Source of the DNA: Candidatus Bathyarchaeia archaeon
GTDB lineage: Bacteria > Hydrogenedentota > Hydrogenedentia > Hydrogenedentales > SLHB01
Direction of reading: 5' to 3'
NCBI GenBank assembly: GCA_035530195.1
Contig: DATKVG010000128.1
Span: 597 to 64,596, forward strand
DNA length: 64,000 nt
The position numbers and the translations under genes are program-made. The notes under the pieces are model-generated. The model was not told the origin of the DNA and did not search any database. It was given only the letters and a program-made list of their open reading frames with translations. Of the stretch, positions 29,172 through 44,718 are shown piece after piece (position 1 is the stretch's first letter; each line of letters begins with the position of its first letter).

Positions 29172-29410
29172 TACACGGCCTCGACCAGGATCTTCTGGCA
29201 AATGCCGCGACCGAGCGCGGTCTGAGTCTGCCCGTGCCGAATTACGATCGGCCCATGTGCAAACGAGTCGCTTACCTTCGTGACGCTCACCCCCGCGCGG
29301 ATGCCCAGCGCTTGCAGCCGGTCATGGATGCCGTGGCCACCTTCGATCGCGCACACGCGTACGGTTTCGCCCGCGGCAACCTCCGTCAACGCCAGCCGCT
29401 TCTCACTCAT
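29171..29410 (-). CDS. feoA: FeoA family protein
   Basis: MSEKRLALTEVAAGETVRVCAIEGGHGIHDRLQALGIRAGVSVTKV is an SH3-like FeoA. This is the internal ATG of ORF 29171..29500, with GAGGTG 4 nt upstream. Confidence 0.8.
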   Translation of the reverse strand: MSEKRLALTEVAAGETVRVCAIEGGHGIHDRLQALGIRAGVSVTKVSDSFAHGPIVIRHGQTQTALGRGICQKILVEAV

Positions 29411-29963
29411 GGCGCACCTCGGCAGGATCGCACTCGGTGGGGTCGCGCTCGGTGGGGTCGCGCTCGGTGGGGTCGCGCTCCTGCGCGACCGGGTTTTCAA
29501 ACGCGGCCATGGCCTGGCTTATTGCGGCGGCATGTTCTGCGTTATCCAGCATCAATGCCATCAGCCAAAGGAGCCGCCGGCCCGTTTCGAGGCTGATCAG
29601 GTGCTCCATTTTGCAGGCGTCCGCCTGCGCCACTTCCGGAGAGACCCCCAGAACTTCCTCAAAAAACCGGGAGAGAGTCCTGAAATTCTGCTCGACTTGT
29701 TCCACCACCCGCGCCCCCTCCTCCGTTAGCAGCAAAAACCGGTTGGGATCTTCCGCAACCAGTTCTCGTTTCTTAAGTTGCGACAACGCCGCAGAGGCCG
29801 CCGCACGGGTCACCTCGAGCCGGACCGCCACGTCCGTCACACGCGCATAACCCAACTTGCCGCGCAACGCGTCTATGGCCATCAGGTAATGGGCCGCCGA
29901 GTGAGAAACGCGGTTCTTCTCGAACTCGCGCCAATAACAAGTTTTGTTGGCGTTGGTAATCAC
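29403..29963 (-). CDS. DtxR/MntR-family metal-dependent transcriptional regulator with a repeat-derived C-terminal tail
   Basis: HSAAHYLMAIDALRGKLGYARVTDVAVRLEVTRAAASAALSQLKKRELV is the wHTH, followed by a dimerisation helix region. The tail ...QERDPTERDPTERDPTECDPAEVRHE is encoded by family-A repeat DNA. Confidence 0.8.
   Translation of the reverse strand: MITNANKTCYWREFEKNRVSHSAAHYLMAIDALRGKLGYARVTDVAVRLEVTRAAASAALSQLKKRELVAEDPNRFLLLTEEGARVVEQVEQNFRTLSRFFEEVLGVSPEVAQADACKMEHLISLETGRRLLWLMALMLDNAEHAAAISQAMAAFENPVAQERDPTERDPTERDPTECDPAEVRHE
29436..29490. repeat. 15-bp tandem repeat (ggtggggtcgcgctc x3) completed by ctgcgcgacc, a family-A hairpin derivative inside coding DNA
   Basis: Read directly at 29436-29450, 29451-29465, 29466-29480 and 29481-29490. 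Confidence 0.8.
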
Positions 29964-36548: not shown

Positions 36549-37444
36549 TTGCTTGTCCCTCCCGGACCTGCGATCTTGTCCATCATTTGGATAGCGTCGG
36601 CCTTTGCCGGCGCATCGAAAACCACGCACAGCAGCTTATCTCTTATACGGACGCCAGTCCACCGGCCGTTTTCGGTTTTTGCAAGGGCATCGGGGCCGGC
36701 GTCGGGCAAGTAGGCGTGCAGGAATTCGGAACGCGCGGCGCGGGCAGCCGCCGCAGCCGGATACCGGACGATCAGACTCGTCATGGGCGGCCCTTCCGGG
36801 GTTTTGTATCGCGCCAGTATGCCTTCGGAGTCTGAATCAAGGTTCAGCAGATTCTTATCGGAGACGTAGTAATAGAGGTTGAGCAGGAAGTGGTTGTGGA
36901 AATAGCGGGTATCGCCTGGCAGCAGGCCTTCGGCGGGCAGCAGGTTGAGCAGGCTGGGCGGACCGGCATCGCCGGCGATGGCGGTGGCGGTGGCTTCGCC
37001 AATGGCCATGATGGCCGCTCGTACAGGTTCAGAGGCCGTGGCGGCGGTGACGTAAACTACGTACCGGTCTTTCCAGAAGGCGAGCGTGGCGCTGTCAAAT
37101 TCGGACTCGCGGCCGACATGCACATCGGCGTCGTCGCGCGTATCATGGTGGTATGCGCCGAACGCGTCGGCGGACGTTTTCATTTTGAAGATGTCGGCGG
37201 TGATTTGGGGAAATCCCTGTTTAATGTAACGGCGTGCCACGACGCGCTGCACGTTCAACGCTTTGTAAATCTCCGATGCGCCGTCGATGTATTCATGGAG
37301 ATTTGCCGCGGAATAGACATTGTCCTTTGAGGGTGTCGTCCAGCCCAATACTTCTTTGGGCACAAGTTTTTCGATCTCGGGATCGACTTTCCGGCCCGGA
37401 TGAGCGTAAAATTGACCAACGGCAAATAAGAAGGCGAGTATCAT
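36545..37444 (-). CDS. Hypothetical exported protein, co-transcribed with the DUF362-like gene
   Basis: It has a hydrophobic N-terminus and clean coding composition. No family is assigned with confidence. Confidence 0.6.
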   Translation of the reverse strand: MILAFLFAVGQFYAHPGRKVDPEIEKLVPKEVLGWTTPSKDNVYSAANLHEYIDGASEIYKALNVQRVVARRYIKQGFPQITADIFKMKTSADAFGAYHHDTRDDADVHVGRESEFDSATLAFWKDRYVVYVTAATASEPVRAAIMAIGEATATAIAGDAGPPSLLNLLPAEGLLPGDTRYFHNHFLLNLYYYVSDKNLLNLDSDSEGILARYKTPEGPPMTSLIVRYPAAAAARAARSEFLHAYLPDAGPDALAKTENGRWTGVRIRDKLLCVVFDAPAKADAIQMMDKIAGPGGTSK

Positions 37445-37639
37445 GTGTTAAGCCTTTCGAGAAACCGGTTTCCATTATACTCCGGGGCCAAGAGGTGGTC
37501 ACGCGATTTTGCGGGTCATGCTAAGGATAAACGTAAGTGTTTACGCAGCAACGAATAGTCGCTGCTGTCGGTTGATAGATTGTCCGGGGTTCGAAATGGT
37601 TTGCGTTCAAACCATGCACAAAGAGGAAAGGGAAACCGT

Positions 37640-37768
37640 ATGAAACACGCAAAACCTTTGTCCAAGGCAATTCTTGGACCTACCAGTGGTATCCTGAGTC
37701 TCCTGCAGTTGCTGATAAACTTGGGGGTCCTCAACATTGAAGACATCTTCAAGAAGGACGGCGCCTAG
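37640..37768 (+). CDS. Small peptide P1 (42 aa), candidate precursor/bacteriocin-like peptide
   Basis: MKHAKPLSKAILGPTSGILSLLQLLINLGVLNIEDIFKKDGA. This is an internal start of ORF 37580..37768 with a purine-rich SD (aagaggaaaggga) upstream. It shares the MKH start and the D[IL]F..D.A end with P3. Confidence 0.55.
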   Translation: MKHAKPLSKAILGPTSGILSLLQLLINLGVLNIEDIFKKDGA

Positions 37769-38005
37769 GCGTCTCCCGCGGCCCCACATAACGTGCTGAC
37801 AGTAAAACACTTGTCTGACCGGGGCATATAATTGGCGTCTTTCACCTCGATGCCGGCTTGGAGGGAAAGAGGGTGGTTTGGCGCCGTAACAACTTTTGCC
37901 GAGCCGTGTATAGTTTTGAGAGCAGTGACGGCGGGGCTACCGTTGGCGGTGGTTCTGTCAGGGTAGGGTTTCCACATACTGTGCAGGTGGGTTTTGCGAG
38001 CCGCG

Positions 38006-38035
38006 TTGACAAGGGTTTAGGCAGGGTGATATACT
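38006..38035 (+). promoter_or_regulatory. Sigma70-like promoter upstream of peptide genes P2-P4
   Basis: TTGACA (38006-38011), then N17 to ATATAC or N18 to TATACT. It lies about 60 nt upstream of the P2 ATG. Confidence 0.5.
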
Positions 38036-38094
38036 CGCGGCCAAAAGGGGTTACAGCCTGTCAAGAGACAGGTTAAAGCCCATCAGGAGACGTT

Positions 38095-38244
38095 ATGAAA
38101 CATCTGCAAAAGGTATCGAAACCGCCCGTTCATGCTGCTGACATCCCTGTGGATGCCAAGATGGCGTTCATCATCTCGATTCTGACGGCATTCACCCCGA
38201 TTCTTGAGGCGAAAAACCCGGAGCAAACCACGCCAACCCCGTAG
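38095..38244 (+). CDS. Small peptide P2 (49 aa), candidate precursor peptide
   Basis: MKHLQKVSKPPVHAADIPVDAKMAFIISILTAFTPILEAKNPEQTTPTP. AGGAGA lies 4 nt upstream of the ATG. It is not in the ORF track (below the length cutoff). Confidence 0.6.
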   Translation: MKHLQKVSKPPVHAADIPVDAKMAFIISILTAFTPILEAKNPEQTTPTP

Positions 38245-38349
38245 TGATTCGGGTTAATCCGGAGATCGGCAGTGGGATGTGCTTAATCGCCAAGAAGCGG
38301 CGCCTAATACGCCGACCTTGTATAGGCAAACGAGCAAGGAGAAAAGAAG

Positions 38350-38475
38350 ATGAAGCACATCAGGAAAATGACAGTAGCGAAGGCGGATGTATTTACGGAC
38401 ATTGGCGATTTCTTCACCAACCTGTGGGATGAAATCAGCGGCTTCTTCAAGGACCTGTTTGGCGGGGACGCCTAG
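38350..38475 (+). CDS. Small peptide P3 (41 aa), candidate precursor peptide
   Basis: MKHIRKMTVAKADVFTDIGDFFTNLWDEISGFFKDLFGGDA. AAGGAG lies 8 nt upstream. It is not in the ORF track. Confidence 0.65.
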   Translation: MKHIRKMTVAKADVFTDIGDFFTNLWDEISGFFKDLFGGDA

Positions 38476-38505
38476 TCCAGCGGAGAAAAACGCCGGAGGT
38501 TTACC

Positions 38506-38673
38506 ATGAGACACGTATTGAAGGTATCTGCCACGTTGATGCGGCCCGAGGAGGGCCATCGCGCTCCTGTGGCAGTGCCGGATCGGGCCGACGCGAAGAC
38601 GGACTTCATGAATGCCGTCTATAACGCGTGGACCGATTTTGTGTACCAGAAGAAAAACGAGTTGAGCGTGTAA
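38506..38673 (+). CDS. Small peptide P4 (55 aa), candidate precursor peptide
   Basis: MRHVLKVSATLMRPEEGHRAPVAVPDRADAKTDFMNAVYNAWTDFVYQKKNELSV. GGAGG lies 6 nt upstream. It is not in the ORF track. Confidence 0.65.
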   Translation: MRHVLKVSATLMRPEEGHRAPVAVPDRADAKTDFMNAVYNAWTDFVYQKKNELSV

Positions 38674-38700
38674 ACCTGCCGTCGAAAACTTGCAGTACTG

Positions 38701-38740
38701 ACCGGGACTCCAGTGTCTTGAAGTCCCGGTTCTGTTTTCT
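38701..38740 (+). terminator. Rho-independent terminator/attenuator between the peptide genes and the enzyme genes
   Basis: ACCGGGACT-ccagtgtcttga-AGTCCCGGT followed by TCTGTTTTCT. Confidence 0.6.
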
Positions 38741-38774
38741 ATACGATCCGGTAAGTGAGGAATGATAAGGACTT

Positions 38775-39311
38775 GTGATTAAGGGCGCGCATAGCGTAAT
38801 CCGTTCGACCGACCCCGATGACGCGGGGGCGCTGAAGTCGGTTTACGACTCTCAGGCGCCGCGGTCGTCGCTGCTCGACCAGCGCCGGGAATTGAACCCG
38901 CCGACGCGGGACGAGCTGCGCGAGGTTATGGGCCAGAAGGAGATGGGGAAGGCGGTGTTTTATACGGTGGAGGATCCGGGCGGCGAAATCTGTGGATTCT
39001 GCTGTCTACGGGGGCTGAATCCCGAGGCGCAGTTCAGCGAATTTGTGGTGATTTTTCTGAATGAAGCGGCGTTTTCGACGCCGATGGCGGACGAAGTATT
39101 CGGGTTTTTGTCGCGGCTGGCGTTCCAGCGGATGCACAACCGCAAGGTGGTGACGCACTGCCTGGACAGCGAGACCGAATATCGGAAGTTTCTGATAGGC
39201 CATGGGTTCAAGAGCGCGGGCGTACAGCGGGACGTGGTGTTTTCGCAGGGGAGGTGGTTCAACCTGGAGGCGTTGACGCTTCGGGCCGCTGATTGTACGT
39301 TTGCCGCTTAA
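38775..39311 (+). CDS. GNAT acetyltransferase, RimJ/RimL-like (divergent)
   Basis: GTG start. The C-terminal half (...VFGFLSRLAFQRMHNRKVVTHCLDSETEYRKFLIGHGFKSAGVQRDVVFSQGRWFNLEALTL) follows the Acetyltransf_3 layout. Confidence 0.7.
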   Translation: MIKGAHSVIRSTDPDDAGALKSVYDSQAPRSSLLDQRRELNPPTRDELREVMGQKEMGKAVFYTVEDPGGEICGFCCLRGLNPEAQFSEFVVIFLNEAAFSTPMADEVFGFLSRLAFQRMHNRKVVTHCLDSETEYRKFLIGHGFKSAGVQRDVVFSQGRWFNLEALTLRAADCTFAA

Positions 39312-39341: not shown

Positions 39342-39986
39342 ATGGCAATTAGGACCAGGACGTTCATCCGCCGGGCGGAGCGTGAAGATTTGGATACGGT
39401 GGTGGCGTGGATGGAGGATCCGGATTTTCAGCTTTTCCTTTACGGCGACCCGGCGCGATCGCCCAAGCAGATCCGTGAGCAGATTGTGTCGATGCTTGGG
39501 CGGTCGTCGGCCCAGACGGTGCCGGGCGGCCTGTACCTGATAATCGACTCGGCGGAACATGGTCCGCTGGGTTTGTTGTCGCTTCAGAACATCAGTTGGC
39601 GCAACCGCAGTTGCAGCATTGACTTGTACATGGGCAACAAGGAGATGCGGCACAAGCTGACGGCGGGGATCGCCTTTTACCGGGCGATGCAGTACGCGTT
39701 TGAAGAGCTGAACCTGCACCGGGTCAATGCTTACATTTACGCGTTCAACGAGGCGTCGTGGATGATCCTGGAGCGGATGGGTGCGGTGCGCGAACTGACG
39801 TTGCCCGAACACGTGGCCAGGGACGGCAGACTTTACGATCTTTACGGGTATGGGTTGCTGCGGCACGAGTTCGAGGCGTTCAAGGGAAAGAACCCGCACC
39901 TGGTCGAGGACGTGGTCGAATCCATGAGGGGGTTGAATTCGGGGCCGGCAGGGGGTGGCGAAAAGGCTGCGGAGAAAGATACGTGA
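39342..39986 (+). CDS. GNAT acetyltransferase, RimJ/RimL-like
   Basis: IRRAEREDLDTVVAWMEDPDF...AFYRAMQYAFEELNLHRVNAYIYAFNEASWMILERMGAVRELTLPEHVARDGRLYDLYGYGLL. Confidence 0.85.
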   Translation: MAIRTRTFIRRAEREDLDTVVAWMEDPDFQLFLYGDPARSPKQIREQIVSMLGRSSAQTVPGGLYLIIDSAEHGPLGLLSLQNISWRNRSCSIDLYMGNKEMRHKLTAGIAFYRAMQYAFEELNLHRVNAYIYAFNEASWMILERMGAVRELTLPEHVARDGRLYDLYGYGLLRHEFEAFKGKNPHLVEDVVESMRGLNSGPAGGGEKAAEKDT

Positions 39987-40876
39987 GCCTGCCAGCGGCC
40001 ATTTTTCTGTGCCTGATGCTGGGACACGCAGGCTTTGCGTTTTTTGTCAACCGCAGGCGGGGAGGTGTTGCGGGGGGCACAAACTTGCTGGTGTCGGCGT
40101 GGCCGTTTTACGTGGTTTTTGTTTCAGGCATCCGGCATCGGACGCCGGCGCTGCGGGCAGGCGCGGTTCTTCAGACGCTGCTGTTTGCTGTGGCATGCTG
40201 GATTGCGGCGGGCAGGGGTGTGTGGAGCCGCGAGTTGATATCTCCGATAGCAATCGGGGCCGGGCTGGCAGCCGGTCATCTGATATTCGGAATGAGCGTG
40301 CTGGCGACGCACAGGTCTTTACGGCAGGCGGGGAGGCACCTGATTGACTTGGGGCCGCTTTGGAATTATCTGACGGACAACCCGCGCATCCTGATGCAGT
40401 TTGCCAGCGTGAGCATCGCGGAAGAGACCATTTATCGGGCGGCGTTGCAGCCGCTGGCGGTGAGTTGGGTCGGGCCGGTTTTGGGCGTGGGGGCGGTGGC
40501 GGTGGTGTTTGCGTGCGTCCACGAACACTTTTTCCGGAACAGCTTGAGGCAGTCGGGCGAGTTTTTGGCGTTCGCGCTGTTGCTTGGCGGCCTTTATTAC
40601 TGGACGGGCAGCCTGATTCTTGTTATGGTCGTTCACGCGGCGCGGAACGTGGAAATCGCCTTCATGGAACGGCTCGCCCAGATAGAGGAATCGGGCGACC
40701 CGGACGCGGGCGAACGCGAGGCCCTGTTCGCCGAGGGCAGGCTGATCGAGGCGCTGGTGGTGGCGCCGGGGTGCGGGATGGCGGTGGGGTGCGTGGACCT
40801 GGCGGTCGAGCCGGTCTGTGAACCGGGGGCGTATCCGGTTCAGGCGCGGTGTTTTGGTCCGTTGGAGAACGTATGA
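39983..40876 (+). CDS. CPBP-family (CAAX/Abi-type) intramembrane glutamic metalloprotease
   Basis: It is polytopic, with all three CPBP motifs: EETIYR (EExxxR), FACVH (FxxxH) and HAARN (HxxxN). The GTG start overlaps the GNAT stop (GTGA). This is the in-frame part of ORF 39758..40876. Confidence 0.8.
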   Translation: MSLPAAIFLCLMLGHAGFAFFVNRRRGGVAGGTNLLVSAWPFYVVFVSGIRHRTPALRAGAVLQTLLFAVACWIAAGRGVWSRELISPIAIGAGLAAGHLIFGMSVLATHRSLRQAGRHLIDLGPLWNYLTDNPRILMQFASVSIAEETIYRAALQPLAVSWVGPVLGVGAVAVVFACVHEHFFRNSLRQSGEFLAFALLLGGLYYWTGSLILVMVVHAARNVEIAFMERLAQIEESGDPDAGEREALFAEGRLIEALVVAPGCGMAVGCVDLAVEPVCEPGAYPVQARCFGPLENV

Positions 40877-41886
40877 AAACCGAATATTTGGTGCGCATCG
40901 ACCGGGTCGATAAAACCTTCAAGACACGTCATCTGTTTTATAAGGACGACACGACGCCGCGCCGGCTATTGCACAAAAAGCTGGTGCAGGCGGCGAGGAA
41001 CATCGATTTTGGGATACGGGCCGGGGAGATTTTCGGCCTTCTCGGCCCAAACGGCGCGGGCAAGACCACGACGGTGAAGATGGTCTCGGGGCTGGTGCGG
41101 CCGGACAGTGGCGCGGTGTACGTGGACGGGCTGAACGTCGACAAAAAACGCCTGCAGGTGCTGAGGAAAGTCGGCGTGGTGCTCGAAGGTACGCGCACGA
41201 GCATTTGGCCGCTGACGCCGTACGAAAACCTGATGTATTACGGCAACCTGAAAGACGTGAAGGGGCGGGTGCTGAAAGAGCGTGCGAAGTCGCTGCTGAC
41301 ATTTATCGGGCTTGATCATAAGCAGCACATCGAGGTGAGGAAACTGTCGCGCGGCGAGAAACAGAAGCTGGCTATCTGCATCGCGCTGATTGCGGACCCG
41401 CCGGTGGTCCTGCTGGACGAGCCGACGACGGGCCTCGATGTCCAGAGCAGCCGCAACATCAAGGACAGAATCCTGGAGATGACGAGGGAGCAGGGAAAGT
41501 GCGTGCTGGTGACGACACACGACATGAACGTGGCGCAGGAGATCTGCGATCGGATCGGCATCATCGACCATGGCGTGCTGGTGGCGTGCCAGCCCAAGGA
41601 ATCGCTGCTGGATGTGTTCAGCGACCCGGTGTTCGAGTTCAAGCTGGACCGGCTGGTGCCCAACTCGATTTTGGACGGGATAGCGCATATCAACGAGATG
41701 ACGATGCGGATCGAAGAAGAGGGCCCGGTAGTGTCCGTGGCGCTGGAAACGGACCTCGAGGCGCGGTCGCGGGCACTGTACGACGTGGTGCAGCGGTTTC
41801 GGGATCAGGGCATTCTGTTGCGGTCGGTTTCGCAGCGGCAGCAGACGCTCGAGAACGTGTTTCTGCGGCTGACGGGCAAGAAGTAG
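40873..41886 (+). CDS. ABC transporter ATP-binding protein
   Basis: Walker A GLLGPNGAGKTT, signature LSRGEKQKLAI and Walker B VVLLDEPTTGLD. ATGA overlap with the CPBP stop. Confidence 0.9.
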   Translation: MKTEYLVRIDRVDKTFKTRHLFYKDDTTPRRLLHKKLVQAARNIDFGIRAGEIFGLLGPNGAGKTTTVKMVSGLVRPDSGAVYVDGLNVDKKRLQVLRKVGVVLEGTRTSIWPLTPYENLMYYGNLKDVKGRVLKERAKSLLTFIGLDHKQHIEVRKLSRGEKQKLAICIALIADPPVVLLDEPTTGLDVQSSRNIKDRILEMTREQGKCVLVTTHDMNVAQEICDRIGIIDHGVLVACQPKESLLDVFSDPVFEFKLDRLVPNSILDGIAHINEMTMRIEEEGPVVSVALETDLEARSRALYDVVQRFRDQGILLRSVSQRQQTLENVFLRLTGKK

Positions 41887-41905: not shown

Positions 41906-42799
41906 ATGGGTTTTTTGCTGGTACTGAAGGCTGAATTTATCCGCAACATGATCGTGATGCGGCGGTACTGGTTCAGGACCGTGACGGGAATGATCATCGG
42001 GTATGGGATGCTGATGTCGATGATCTGGATGTTTCATTCGAAGGGGGGCGTAGATCCGGAGGGGTTTGCGAGCCGGTTCAGCGATCCGGAAGATGCGACG
42101 AAATTTGCCCTGACTTTTATCATCGGGATGCTGGCGTTTGGCATAGTGGGCCTTTTCAGCCAGGGTTTGCAGGGGATGGCGCAAAGCGGCCAGTTGGAGC
42201 AGTTGTGCATGAGCCCGCACGGGCTGGTGTCGAATTTCATGGCGCGGTCGTTGATGGCGTCGGTGACGTCGGTGCCGACGTCGGCGCTGATGGTTTGGTT
42301 GATCGCGTACCGGGTGAGATTCGACTTGCCGATGACGACGTTGGCCGACTTTTTGACGCTGGTTCTTCTGTTGGCGCTGGCGTTCTTGAACCTGATTGGG
42401 TTTGGTTTCATGGTGGGCGGATTGGTGCTGGTGTTCAAGCAGACCGGCCAGGTGGCGGTGATCGTGCGGATGGTCTTGTTGGGTATCGCCGTCATGGCCG
42501 ACGACGTGCGGACGTTCCCAAAGATACTTCAAGTGTTTTCGCACGCGTTGCCCATCACAGATGCCACGCTGTGCCTGATCCACCTTGTGATCCGGGGGCA
42601 AATGCAGCCGGTGTATGACGCGAAAGGCAAGCCGCTGATGGAAGGGGCGAAGGTGGTGGCGAACTACGTGCCGATCCTGTTTCACCCGTCGTTTTTGTTG
42701 CTGCTGGTGAACTGCGCCGTCTGGACGTTCCTGGGCATCGCCTGTTTTCGCTTCATGGAGAACTGGAGCCGCAACAAGGGCACCCTGGGGGCCTACTGA
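41906..42799 (+). CDS. ABC-2 type transporter permease
   Basis: Six hydrophobic segments, following the ATPase by 19 nt. Confidence 0.8.
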   Translation: MGFLLVLKAEFIRNMIVMRRYWFRTVTGMIIGYGMLMSMIWMFHSKGGVDPEGFASRFSDPEDATKFALTFIIGMLAFGIVGLFSQGLQGMAQSGQLEQLCMSPHGLVSNFMARSLMASVTSVPTSALMVWLIAYRVRFDLPMTTLADFLTLVLLLALAFLNLIGFGFMVGGLVLVFKQTGQVAVIVRMVLLGIAVMADDVRTFPKILQVFSHALPITDATLCLIHLVIRGQMQPVYDAKGKPLMEGAKVVANYVPILFHPSFLLLLVNCAVWTFLGIACFRFMENWSRNKGTLGAY

Positions 42800-44718
42800 T
42801 GCCGCGGGAGGCCTTGCACCGGTTCGAGCACGACGGCAAACGGTTTGCCATCGACCCCGAGACGTGTTTTTGTTTCGAGTGCGACGCGATCTGCTGGGAC
42901 GTGCTCGAGCACTACGCGCAGGAGACCAGCAACCGGATCTTCCACCTTCTCAAAAACAAGTACAGCCTGAAAGAGTTGGAGGAAGTGGCGGGCGAACTCG
43001 AATGGCTGCGCGCATCCAAATCAATACTCAGGGCGCCCAAAAAGGAAGACCTGCTCAAACAGTTCGAGGTCGAACGCGGGCTGAAACGGGTGTCGGTGTC
43101 CTTGCCGCGGGAGACGGCGGAGCCCATACAGGCGCAGGCGCGGTGGTTTGGCCGGCCGGCGCGGGTGGTATCGTCGGGCGGGCGTGAAATCGGCCGTGGT
43201 GCGGTTTTGCTGCTGCTGGGCCGGTCGGGCGCGCAGAAAGAATTGCAGCTCGAATTTGTCGAAGAGGGGCACATACACCACCCTGAGTTGATTGCGGAAC
43301 TGTGCGGGTGGGCGTTGAACTCGGCGCGGCTTGCCGAGAAAACGCTGACGGTCTCGGTGCATGTCACGAACATTACCGTGGCGAAACTGCCCGAGGCGCT
43401 TGCGGGGCATACGCTGGGTGCGAAGCTCGAACTGACGAGGGCAGAGGGCGTCCTGGCGCACGTGAACGCGCTGGCGGCCGCTATCGGCGAGACGTTGCCG
43501 CGGTTGGCCAAAGCGCTCGAGCCGGACGCCAAAGACGCCGGCGGGCGTGTCGTTGTTCGGCCGAACCACCCCGGGTTTGGAGAAGTGGCGGAAACGCTGG
43601 ACGATTCCGGTTTCACGGGCATCGAGATTGATCTTGACGGTGCGTACGTGGCCAACCCGGGGCTGGAGCCGGGCGCAGTCACGGCCGCAATGGAAGAGAA
43701 CGCGCGCTATTACGCGGGGCGGCTGATGAAACACCATTACTTCCGGCTGGACCCGATTGCGCCGCTGTTCTGGCGGATCTATTCGGGCGCGCCGGTGGCG
43801 AGATCGGACTCCGCGGGTACCAACGAACTGGCGGTCGAGGGCGACGGCAGGATTTATCCGTCGATGCGGCTGTCGGGCAAAGAACCGTTTTGCCTGGGCA
43901 GTTTGACGGACGGGCTGGACGAGGAGAAAGTCCGGCCGTTTGAGGATGTGGGGGCGCTCACCACTCATCCATGCACGGGCTGTTGGGCGCGCAACCTCTG
44001 CGGCGGGGGCACGGCGGCGGTGCATTATGCGCTGGCGGGCTCGATTCGGACGCCACACCCGGCGTGGTGCGGCGGGCAGCGGGCGTGGATGCAGAGCGCG
44101 GTTTCGGCGTTTCAGGTGCTGTCCTCGGCGGGCATCCACTTTGAACGGGTTTACAGGATCCTTGGCCGGCGGGAGAAACCGTCGCTGTTCGCGCTGGCCA
44201 AGGCGGCGATTACGATGAGCATCGGCGTCCGGCCCATCGAAGAAGCCGACGCGGAACTGGTGACCAAATGGGAGAGCTGGAACGAGTCGGCCTACTTCCT
44301 GTTCAACGAATCGGGCGTGTACCTGGCAACGAAATACGACCGCGAGATGGACTCGCTCCATCCGCGGGGCATCGATCAGGAACTGATACTGCTGCGGAAA
44401 TCCGGCGAGCCGTTCGGGCTGCTCAAGCTGCGGCCCAAATGGGTCGGCGGGGCCGTGCTGGTTTGGGTGTACATGCGCGACGAGGCCGACTACGCCGCCG
44501 AGCCCATCCGCAAAAGTTTCCGCGCCATCCTCAAAGAGGCGGCCGGCCAGAGCAGCGTGCGCCAGATCGTCGTGCCGGTCTCGCCAAAGGAGAAGCCGCT
44601 GAGCGAGTTTTTATCTGCGGTGGGTTTTGGGGAAGTGGGCGCGATGCGCGATGCCCTGTACCTGCACGGAAAATACGAGGATGTCACGCTGTATGCGACC
44701 GCGCCAGACAGGCTTTAA
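42799..44718 (+). CDS. Radical-SAM-maturase-like protein lacking the CxxxCxxC motif, with a partial SPASM domain and a C-terminal RimJ/RimL-like GNAT domain
   Basis: The N-terminus LHRFEHDGKRFAIDPETCFCFECDAICWDVLEHY resembles the start of SCIFF/anSME-type peptide maturases. There is no CxxxCxxC anywhere. The SPASM-like region is FCLGS...HPCTGCWARNLCGGGT...AWCGG. The last ~190 aa (IGVRPIEEADAELVTKWESW...DALYLHGKYEDVTLYA) look like a GNAT. TGATG overlap with the permease stop. Confidence 0.75.
   Translation: MPREALHRFEHDGKRFAIDPETCFCFECDAICWDVLEHYAQETSNRIFHLLKNKYSLKELEEVAGELEWLRASKSILRAPKKEDLLKQFEVERGLKRVSVSLPRETAEPIQAQARWFGRPARVVSSGGREIGRGAVLLLLGRSGAQKELQLEFVEEGHIHHPELIAELCGWALNSARLAEKTLTVSVHVTNITVAKLPEALAGHTLGAKLELTRAEGVLAHVNALAAAIGETLPRLAKALEPDAKDAGGRVVVRPNHPGFGEVAETLDDSGFTGIEIDLDGAYVANPGLEPGAVTAAMEENARYYAGRLMKHHYFRLDPIAPLFWRIYSGAPVARSDSAGTNELAVEGDGRIYPSMRLSGKEPFCLGSLTDGLDEEKVRPFEDVGALTTHPCTGCWARNLCGGGTAAVHYALAGSIRTPHPAWCGGQRAWMQSAVSAFQVLSSAGIHFERVYRILGRREKPSLFALAKAAITMSIGVRPIEEADAELVTKWESWNESAYFLFNESGVYLATKYDREMDSLHPRGIDQELILLRKSGEPFGLLKLRPKWVGGAVLVWVYMRDEADYAAEPIRKSFRAILKEAAGQSSVRQIVVPVSPKEKPLSEFLSAVGFGEVGAMRDALYLHGKYEDVTLYATAPDRL

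Follow-up and report, generated by a model that had tools for sequence, protein, structure and literature searches.

The 64,000-nucleotide (nt) stretch of DNA analysed here, taken from contig DATKVG010000128.1 of GenBank assembly GCA_035530195.1 and called the window below, carries a row of four small peptide genes, P1–P4, followed on the same strand by a six-gene cassette. The cassette encodes two free-standing GNAT proteins, a CPBP-type intramembrane protease, the ATPase and the permease of an ABC transporter, and a 639-residue fusion protein that resembles a radical-SAM peptide maturase joined to a third GNAT domain. A candidate promoter precedes P2, and a predicted terminator hairpin lies between P4 and the first enzyme gene. 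We describe the peptides and their homologues, the fusion protein and the cassette, and weigh the possibility that they together constitute a peptide maturation and export system.

Four leader-bearing peptide genes and their family

P1 (37640–37768, +; 42 amino acids (aa)), a putative precursor of class D, opens with the leader MKHAKPLS and contains the hydrophobic core GILSLLQLLINLGVLNIEDIFKKDG. P2 (38095–38244, +; 49 aa), of class A, joins the leader MKHLQKVS to a ..P..A.DIP.. segment, a hydrophobic core and an AK[NE] motif with a Thr/Pro tail. P3 (38350–38475, +; 41 aa), of class B, has the leader MKHIRKMT, a VAKAD junction, an anionic amphipathic core and the sequence FFKDLF, and P4 (38506–38673, +; 55 aa), of class C, consists of the leader MRHVLKVS, a hypervariable spacer, an ADA junction and the core KTDFMNAVYNAWTDFVYQKKNE. 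An earlier reading of this DNA, made from the letters without database searches (the sequence-only reading), had singled out these four frames. The open reading frames (ORFs) have the sequences that it quoted, all on the plus strand, and its proposal that each has its own Shine–Dalgarno sequence at 4–8 nt agrees with the purine-rich, Shine–Dalgarno-like sites found 5–8 nt upstream of all four (AGGGA at 6 nt for P1, AGGAG at 5 nt for P2, AGGAG at 8 nt for P3 and GGAGG at 6 nt for P4). As it also stated, P1–P4 contain no Cys.

The shared N terminus on which that reading relied had to be restated. Its motif M[KR]H..K.[ST] fits P2–P4 and fails for P1, in which the Lys stands at position 5 (MKHAKPLS), and this misfit led us to replace it with the relaxed form M[KR]H[ILVAM]..[ILVM][ST]. 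Combined with a minimum of 30 codons, the relaxed motif has four matches in the six frames of the window, which are exactly P1–P4, against a chance expectation of 0.035 matches per window in shuffled sequence. The proposed paralogy is borne out by this leader, common to all four peptides, and by a core motif common to P3 and P4, both of which contain N-[LA]-W-[DT]-[ED]-[IF]; a tail said to be shared by P1 and P3, D[IL]F..D.A, is present in P1 (DIFKKDGA) and one residue short in P3 (DLFGGDA). The peptides had been called unannotated, which does not hold for P4, entered at NCBI with the identical sequence as a hypothetical protein. A related metagenome-assembled genome, too, has annotated homologues of P1 and P4, and metagenome gene callers do call these ORFs. 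The remark that three of the four fall below a 60-aa cutoff of the ORF track fits the ORF lengths, since only the ORF of P1 reaches 62 aa, counted from an upstream TTG.

Short frames of this kind could have arisen by chance in a long intergenic or regulatory stretch and never be translated. The ORFs are short, the GC content of the region (about 50%) is below that of its flanks (about 60%), and the exact P1 sequence is not among the matches of the homology search, in which the best match is 88% identical. Against this stand the exclusivity of the motif to P1–P4 in the window and the pattern of substitution: the pooled ratios of nonsynonymous to synonymous substitution rates (dN/dS) of the peptide ORFs are 0.15, 0.13, 0.19 and 0.13 in comparisons with four loci whose large protein is 89%, 74%, 61% and 61% identical to that of the window. 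These values were obtained by the Nei–Gojobori method, which replaced naive counts of substitutions by codon position that are weak for the closest pair. For single peptides, dN/dS is 0.14 for P1 (against the related locus L002), 0.06–0.20 for P2 and 0.08–0.25 for P3. The sequence-only reading would have been overturned by frames that are not conserved in relatives or by substitutions without a synonymous bias; the pooled range of 0.13–0.19 shows the bias, and frame and amino-acid sequence are kept in 37 loci, on one strand throughout, down to about 39% identity of the maturase. A reading as chance frames is thus refuted, with a negligible remaining probability, and P1–P4 are confirmed as real genes under purifying selection.

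This conservation was measured with a hidden Markov model (HMM) profile built from leader-bearing peptides, which was run over all stop-to-stop ORFs, of either strand, in 88 sequences, namely the window and 87 loci. At E<1e-3 it gave 114 matches in the 37 loci, 1–6 per locus, corresponding to 101 unique sequences, and every one of the 114 lies on the operon strand. An 11-sequence profile of close P4 homologues, searched against 1.84 billion representative proteins, retrieved 27 small proteins of 39–87 aa with the same plan, each an independent representative cluster; one further match, in a 3319-aa protein, is spurious. The peptides form a new precursor-peptide family, with about 100 unique members identified here; class C alone accounts for 27 representative clusters. 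For class A there are 25 homologues by motif and more by HMM, and class D-like peptides occur in L013, L016, L019, L020, L031, L088 and L089, more distant loci among them. P1 is the weakest supported of the four, but it has homologues, 74–88% identical to it, that keep the core while spacer and tail vary. The locus has its closest relatives in contigs of Candidatus Hydrogenedentota. An additional contig scan with a single-protein query returned just one short contig, on which the peptide region is not present.

The members of the family are built alike. An N-terminal motif of 8 residues is followed by a variable spacer, by a helical core that spans about 20–28 residues, by a Lys-polar motif and by a short tail. 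Across the 101 unique peptides the leader M-x-H-[ILV]-x-x-[IVL]-[ST] is conserved. Among the 26 independent class C representatives that came out of the library-wide search, His3 is invariant and residue 2 is K, R, S, D or I. The spacer evolves fast and often ends in A-x-A or ADA; the core is hydrophobic or amphipathic and is accompanied by conserved Lys-polar motifs (QKKNE, AKE/AKN, KKDG and FKDLF). This division is clearest in 11 close homologues of P4, in which the leader and the core ADAKTDFMNAVYNAWTDFVYQKKNELSV are near-invariant and residues 10–24 are hypervariable. An AlphaFold2 (AF2) model of P4 has residues 1–21 disordered and residues 27–54 as one helix, with a block-mean predicted local distance difference test (pLDDT) score of 94 over residues 31–50. 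A Lys beyond residue 20 is present in each of the 101 peptides, the last Lys standing most often 5 residues from the C terminus, and Cys occurs in 10 of the 101, never at a conserved position.

Four classes recur, mostly in the order D-A-B-C with C last, and classes A and C co-occur nearly always. In class A (P2-like), ..P..A.DIP.. precedes a hydrophobic core and [AV]K[EN], after which comes a Thr/Pro/acidic tail; class B (P3-like) is marked by the VAKAD junction and by FFKDLF at the end of the core; class C (P4-like) has the ADA junction and then DF.NA.WRAW.DF...KKNE; class D (P1-like) has ..P[IL]SKA, a hydrophobic core and KKDG. The largest arrays are in L090, L056 and L074, and a 1.8-kb contig (L090:428-1609) holds six tandem leader-bearing peptide genes of classes A, A, A, other, C and C. 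An amphipathic stretch had been proposed for P2–P4. It is evident in the core of P3 (hydrophobic moment 0.59, shuffle p<0.001), but not in that of P2, which is hydrophobic and transmembrane-like, as is the core of P1; the mean hydrophobicity of these two cores is 0.56–0.60 over 18 residues. Beyond the 8-residue leader the net charge is −5 for P3, 0 for P1 and −1 for both P2 and P4, so P1–P4 are non-cationic, unlike typical cationic antimicrobial peptides.

A putative sigma-70-like promoter, TTGACA-18-TATACT (38006–38035, +), was found upstream of P2 by consensus scan; it matches 11 of 12 consensus positions and has an extended −10 TG, and its function as the P2 promoter is suggested by this match. 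The site lies in the 326-nt spacer between P1 and P2 (37769–38094), which is 81% identical to its counterpart in L002 and thus about as conserved as the peptide genes. An Rfam scan of 37300–38900 gave a sub-threshold tmRNA fragment at the edge only, and no RNA family for the P1–P2 spacer. Between P4 and the first cassette gene, a predicted intrinsic terminator or attenuator hairpin, GACCGGGACU...AGUCCCGGUU with a U-rich tail, occupies 38700–38741 (+), with a folding free energy of −24 kcal/mol and a z score of −2.8. In most of 32 non-redundant loci this position is taken by an equivalent GC-rich hairpin with a T-run (mean z −3.9), and its stems co-vary across loci: CCGGGACT/AGTCCCGG, CCGGAACT/AGTTCCGG and CCGGGGC/GCCCCGG. 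Such a hairpin between peptides and enzymes is the classic precursor/enzyme attenuator arrangement.

The fusion protein and its cassette

The gene for the 639-aa protein (42799–44718, +) closes the cassette. Matches in NCBIfam, in the PDB and by fold divide its product into a RiPP recognition element (RRE)-like unit (residues ~1–75; RiPP, a ribosomally made and post-translationally modified peptide), a radical-SAM-like barrel (~95–330), a SPASM remnant (~339–445) and a RimJ/L-like GNAT domain (~475–639). This pseudo-radical-SAM/SPASM scaffold fused to a GNAT domain is a new maturase architecture. NCBIfam models of SCIFF, QhpD and Nif11 maturases match the C-terminal part only, far below their family cut-offs, and the SPASM model TIGR04085 is passed with 31.3 bits against a cut-off of 27. 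The best relative in the PDB is the SCIFF sactisynthase CteB (5wgg; sequence E 7e-17): residues 5–155 align with CteB 6–156, a stretch that takes in the RRE and the beginning of the barrel, and residues 339–429 align with the CteB SPASM domain. An AF2 model (pLDDT 85.6) contains an N-terminal β-β-β-α-α-α unit, the barrel, a SPASM-like region and a C-terminal GNAT domain. Searched with Foldseek, it again recovered CteB (E 6e-18; TM 0.69 over 490 columns), followed, for the C-terminal domain, by RimJ, RimL and SpeG.

Where CteB has the sequence CNLRCKYC, the fusion protein has a Cys-free loop, the least confident part of the AF2 model, and the CxxxCxxC motif occurs neither in any of the 117 aligned homologues nor in the divergent loci checked. 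The sequence-only reading was therefore right about a neighbouring maturase homologue that has lost its SAM cluster, as this protein is CteB-like in both sequence and fold and lacks CxxxCxxC. The absence of the motif from the maturase family and the Cys-free substrates together indicate that the loss of radical chemistry goes with Cys-free peptides. That reading's exclusion of thioether chemistry of the sacti- and ranthipeptide kind is likewise effectively upheld, with no Cys in P1–P4 and no conserved Cys in the family. Features that it had not picked up are the three GNAT domains, the CPBP protease and the ABC-2 exporter of the cassette, the conserved terminator between peptides and enzymes, the conserved Lys motif near the C terminus of the peptides and the distribution across the phylum.

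The remaining conserved Cys residues of the protein fall into two groups. Three (C23, C25 and C28) belong to an invariant C-F-C-F-E-C strand, β3 of the RRE-like unit. RRE domains bind RiPP leaders alongside β3. The N-terminal CxCxxC was considered as a non-canonical radical-SAM cluster and set aside, as in the model it would sit on β3 of the RRE and not in the barrel. The same strand (window 42865–42885, residues 23–29) and a conserved His7 coexist with His3 of the peptides, whose M-x-H start is formally an ATCUN-type (amino-terminal copper- and nickel-binding) N terminus, and a metal-mediated contact between the strand and the leader His3 is possible. The second group is the set of invariant SPASM Cys, limited to C392, C395, C401 and C424, which would correspond to the ligand set of one auxiliary SPASM cluster; the fourth Cys of CX2CX5CX3C is replaced. 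A full SPASM domain has two auxiliary [4Fe-4S] clusters and 7–8 Cys, and at most one auxiliary cluster seems plausible here.

Downstream of the hairpin, the genes of the cassette overlap or stand close together. The first, GNAT1 (38775–39311, +; 178 aa; PF13420, Pfam E 2.4e-8), is syntenic in all loci long enough to judge. GNAT2 (39342–39986, +; 214 aa; PF13302, RimJ/RimL-type, Pfam E 4e-17) has PDB matches to SpeG and AAC(6') and is 52–93% identical across loci; it and the ABC ATPase are the two most conserved proteins of the cassette. The number of GNAT genes is not fixed, as locus L008 has three separate ones, not two, before the CPBP gene (L008:5683-7430). A gene for a CPBP (Rce1-like) glutamic intramembrane protease follows at 39983–40876 (+; PF02517, E 2e-11), overlapping GNAT2 by 4 nt. 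The motifs EExxYR, HEHF and HAxRN are conserved in its product, and with catalytic residues intact it is probably an active protease. The DrrA-like ATPase of an ABC transporter (40873–41886, +) is assigned by PF00005 (E 1e-28), TIGR01188 (E 2e-70) and synteny; its start is taken as the ATG overlapping the CPBP stop, placed by analogy with 4-nt overlaps in L002–L008. Next to it, the gene at 41906–42799 (+) is read as an ABC-2 type permease from synteny and from matches to PF12698 and PF01061, both below cut-offs.

Wherever a locus is long enough to show it, the order GNAT1-GNAT2-CPBP-ABC-permease-fusion is kept without exception, within flanking genes that vary (at least seven different contexts surround the cassette). 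Of 39 non-redundant loci, 33 have peptide genes no more than 3 kb upstream of GNAT1. When the search was started instead from divergent peptides, locus L088 again presented peptides and then GNAT1, GNAT2 and CPBP. In L002 the cassette is flanked by a DUF362/DUF6599 pair, and about 2 kb upstream of this pair there is a reverse-transcriptase gene (RVT_1; L002:958-2460), probably of a group II intron, which the window lacks.

A proposed RiPP-like maturation and export system and its alternatives

RiPP systems combine a short precursor, in which a conserved leader is separate from the core, with an adjacent tailoring enzyme that carries an RRE. The peptides have the former organization, and the 639-aa protein, judged by sequence and model, appears to provide the latter. 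An RRE domain, leader–spacer–core anatomy and terminator-separated precursors are hallmarks of RiPP and bacteriocin operons. We consider it fairly likely that P1–P4 are the precursors in a RiPP-like system that matures and exports peptides and is specific to Candidatus Hydrogenedentota.

Such a system would work as follows. The peptides would be transcribed from their own promoter or promoters, and the conserved terminator between them and the enzyme genes, being leaky, would leave precursor mRNA in excess. The RRE-like domain of the 639-aa protein would bind the N-terminal motif, and the catalytically dead radical-SAM/SPASM body would serve as a substrate-holding scaffold. The fused GNAT domain, the two free RimJ/L-like GNATs or all of them would N-acylate the peptide, for which the conserved distal Lys would be the likeliest acceptor and a new N terminus the alternative. 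The CPBP protease would then trim the leader or the tail, and the ABC-2 transporter would export the products. As to the biological role of the P1–P4 system, we infer that the products would act jointly, as non-cationic helices active at membranes or surfaces.

A more ambitious version joins these elements into a new RiPP class, and we put it forward tentatively, as possible rather than probable. A sactisynthase-type enzyme without radical chemistry would have been repurposed as a leader-binding scaffold that presents Cys-free helices to one fused GNAT and two accessory ones, which would N-acylate them; a metal could mediate recognition of the leader, between His3 and C-F-C-F-E-C with His7, and the acylated set would be a phylum-wide physiological trait of Hydrogenedentota, not a sporadic antibiotic.

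Several observations weigh against a RiPP-like system. Both GNAT1 and GNAT2 lack the canonical Q/R-x-x-G-x-G/A acetyl-CoA loop (in GNAT2 the loop reads R-H-K-L-T-A, compared with S-G-K-G-Y-A in SpeG), and the position of the usual catalytic Tyr is unconserved in GNAT2; these losses of loop and Tyr make the activity and the acyl donor of GNAT1 and GNAT2 uncertain. A search of P1–P4 against Pfam and NCBIfam at E<=10 gave nothing significant, so that no known leader family is matched. Greater conservation of the core than of the spacer, and the spread of the cassette through the whole phylum, are atypical for arms-race bacteriocins and suggest a housekeeping role. Nor is the linkage of peptides to cassette complete. 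The six exceptions among the 39 loci form one divergent clade with 32–40% identity, in which (L058–L063, L067) no peptides were found within about 8 kb by ORF listing or HMM. Conversely, L089:8560-9433 (JGI Ga0534105_02325) has four leader-bearing peptide genes after gltB/gltD, and no cassette gene within 9 kb downstream of them. The linkage of the peptides to the cassette is strong, not absolute, and the two are unlinked in some lineages.

The missing acetyl-CoA loop residues would fit peptides that are secreted unmodified, as class II bacteriocin-like molecules or as surfactants like the phenol-soluble modulins (PSMs). The N-terminal motif would then be an export or processing signal, the ABC-2 transporter would export the peptides, and the CPBP and GNAT proteins would protect the producer itself instead of maturing the peptides. 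Tandem, paralogous, Cys-free helical peptides do adjoin an ABC-2 exporter here, and there are precedents for each role: PSMs are exported by the ABC-2-type Pmt system, Abi/CPBP proteins confer immunity to bacteriocins, and microcin C is detoxified by acetyltransferases of the MccE type. Such a reading nevertheless leaves unexplained a full-length, strictly syntenic RRE-bearing scaffold–GNAT fusion. It also has to accommodate cores that are neutral to anionic, the absence of a double-glycine leader and of a C39 peptidase domain, and a CPBP protein whose intact catalytic residues mark it as probably an active protease. We judge it unlikely, though not far-fetched.

The conservation of the cores leads to another alternative, in which the peptides stay with the cell as small housekeeping proteins of the membrane or envelope (subunits, regulators or substrates of the CPBP protease or the ABC transporter) and the cassette is a dedicated apparatus for their biogenesis and quality control. 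Phylum-wide distribution and very strong conservation of the core sequences favour this over a classical arms-race bacteriocin. The transmembrane-like cores of P1 and P2, the consistent co-occurrence of classes A and C in a fixed gene order, and the lineages in which peptides and cassette are unlinked would also suit it. It does not account for the leader–spacer–core anatomy, the RRE or the terminator-separated precursors, and 1–6 copies per locus would be unusual for stoichiometric subunits. We judge cell-retained envelope proteins unlikely, a little more so than peptides secreted unmodified.

Among known systems, and over RRE, barrel and SPASM, the closest relative of the large protein is the SCIFF system of sactipeptide and ranthipeptide formation (CteB, PDB 5WGG; TIGR03974), in which small precursor genes likewise stand in the same operon as the large protein. 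Here, however, CxxxCxxC is missing, only four SPASM Cys remain and a GNAT domain is fused to the C terminus, and the substrates, being without Cys, make thioether formation impossible.

Protease and exporter have a different parallel. In streptolysin-S-type clusters, the CPBP protease SagE and the ABC-2 transporter SagGHI serve the peptide, and in the yydFGHIJ epipeptide operon of Bacillus subtilis, yydG encodes a radical-SAM/SPASM enzyme. Compared on the basis of established knowledge, both follow the same logic as the locus here, in which a small peptide goes with a protease embedded in the membrane and with the ATPase and permease of an ABC-2-type transporter. In contrast to streptolysin S, a thiazole/oxazole-modified microcin (TOMM), there is no SagBCD cyclodehydratase/dehydrogenase here and the cores are not rich in heterocyclisable residues; in contrast to yydFGHIJ, there is no active radical-SAM epimerase, and the modification enzymes are GNATs. 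The PSM system (psm-alpha with the Pmt exporter) and aureocin A70 resemble P1–P4 in having tandem, paralogous, Cys-free helical peptides of 20–55 aa, often overlooked in annotation, with ABC-2-type export. Those peptides are leaderless and unmodified but for N-formyl-Met, whereas the present locus has a conserved N-terminal motif, a variable spacer predicted to be disordered, an RRE-bearing protein and three GNAT domains. Class II bacteriocins differ in turn, as the leader–core junctions here have no GG motif and a DrrA-like ATPase is paired with a separate ABC-2 permease without C39.

The closest parallel for the proposed acylation is found in the selidamides (KspN, PhaN, NpuN; PMC8784127), whose ribosomal precursors are also clustered with GNAT-superfamily enzymes. 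Selidamide GNATs acylate Lys or Orn (PMC8784127), and the peptides here have Lys residues near a core terminus that are potential N-acyl acceptors, with a distal Lys in all 101. Selidamide precursors have nitrile hydratase-like (NHLP) or Nif11 leaders, and the GNATs are given as PF00583, or in one passage as PF00538 (PMC8784127). By contrast, the leader here is an 8-residue MxH motif that belongs to no known family (Pfam, NCBIfam, E<=10), and the GNATs are PF13302 and PF13420 (RimJ/L-type), not PF00583, as judged by family models. One of them is fused to a dead radical-SAM scaffold, and neither a lanthionine synthetase nor an arginase is present at the locus. No curated family covering the peptides was found in Pfam or NCBIfam, and a full-text literature search, whose coverage excluded most subscription journals, found no description of the cassette.

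Because the enzyme gives no radical-SAM domain match, the cluster would probably not be recognised as a radical-SAM RiPP system by rule-based genome mining. The system offers a testable case of an enzyme fold kept for substrate recognition after catalysis was lost and, with four peptides and six genes, is small enough for heterologous reconstitution to be feasible. For the uncultured phylum Hydrogenedentota, specialised metabolism is, to our knowledge, essentially undescribed; a phylum-wide cassette points to a function important for them, whether in the envelope, as a surfactant, in signalling or in competition.

Source of the contig and other features of the window

Proteins identical to the maturase and to P4 are labelled 'Candidatus Bathyarchaeia archaeon' in NCBI, and every relative belongs to Candidatus Hydrogenedentota. 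The ORFs of the window read as typical bacterial housekeeping genes, and the source contig is probably mis-binned.

Two further ORFs on the minus strand have repetitive C termini: a 186-aa ORF (29403–29963) ends in an ERDPT tandem repeat, and a 223-aa ORF resembling ribosomal protein L25 (33531–34202) has a KEKEKEKE tail. The palindromic repeat TGGTGCGGGCGTC[TC]CGCCTGCA is present in four intergenic copies, at about 31390 (+), 49519 (−), 49585 (−) and 49615 (+), and looks like a repetitive extragenic palindromic (REP)-type element.

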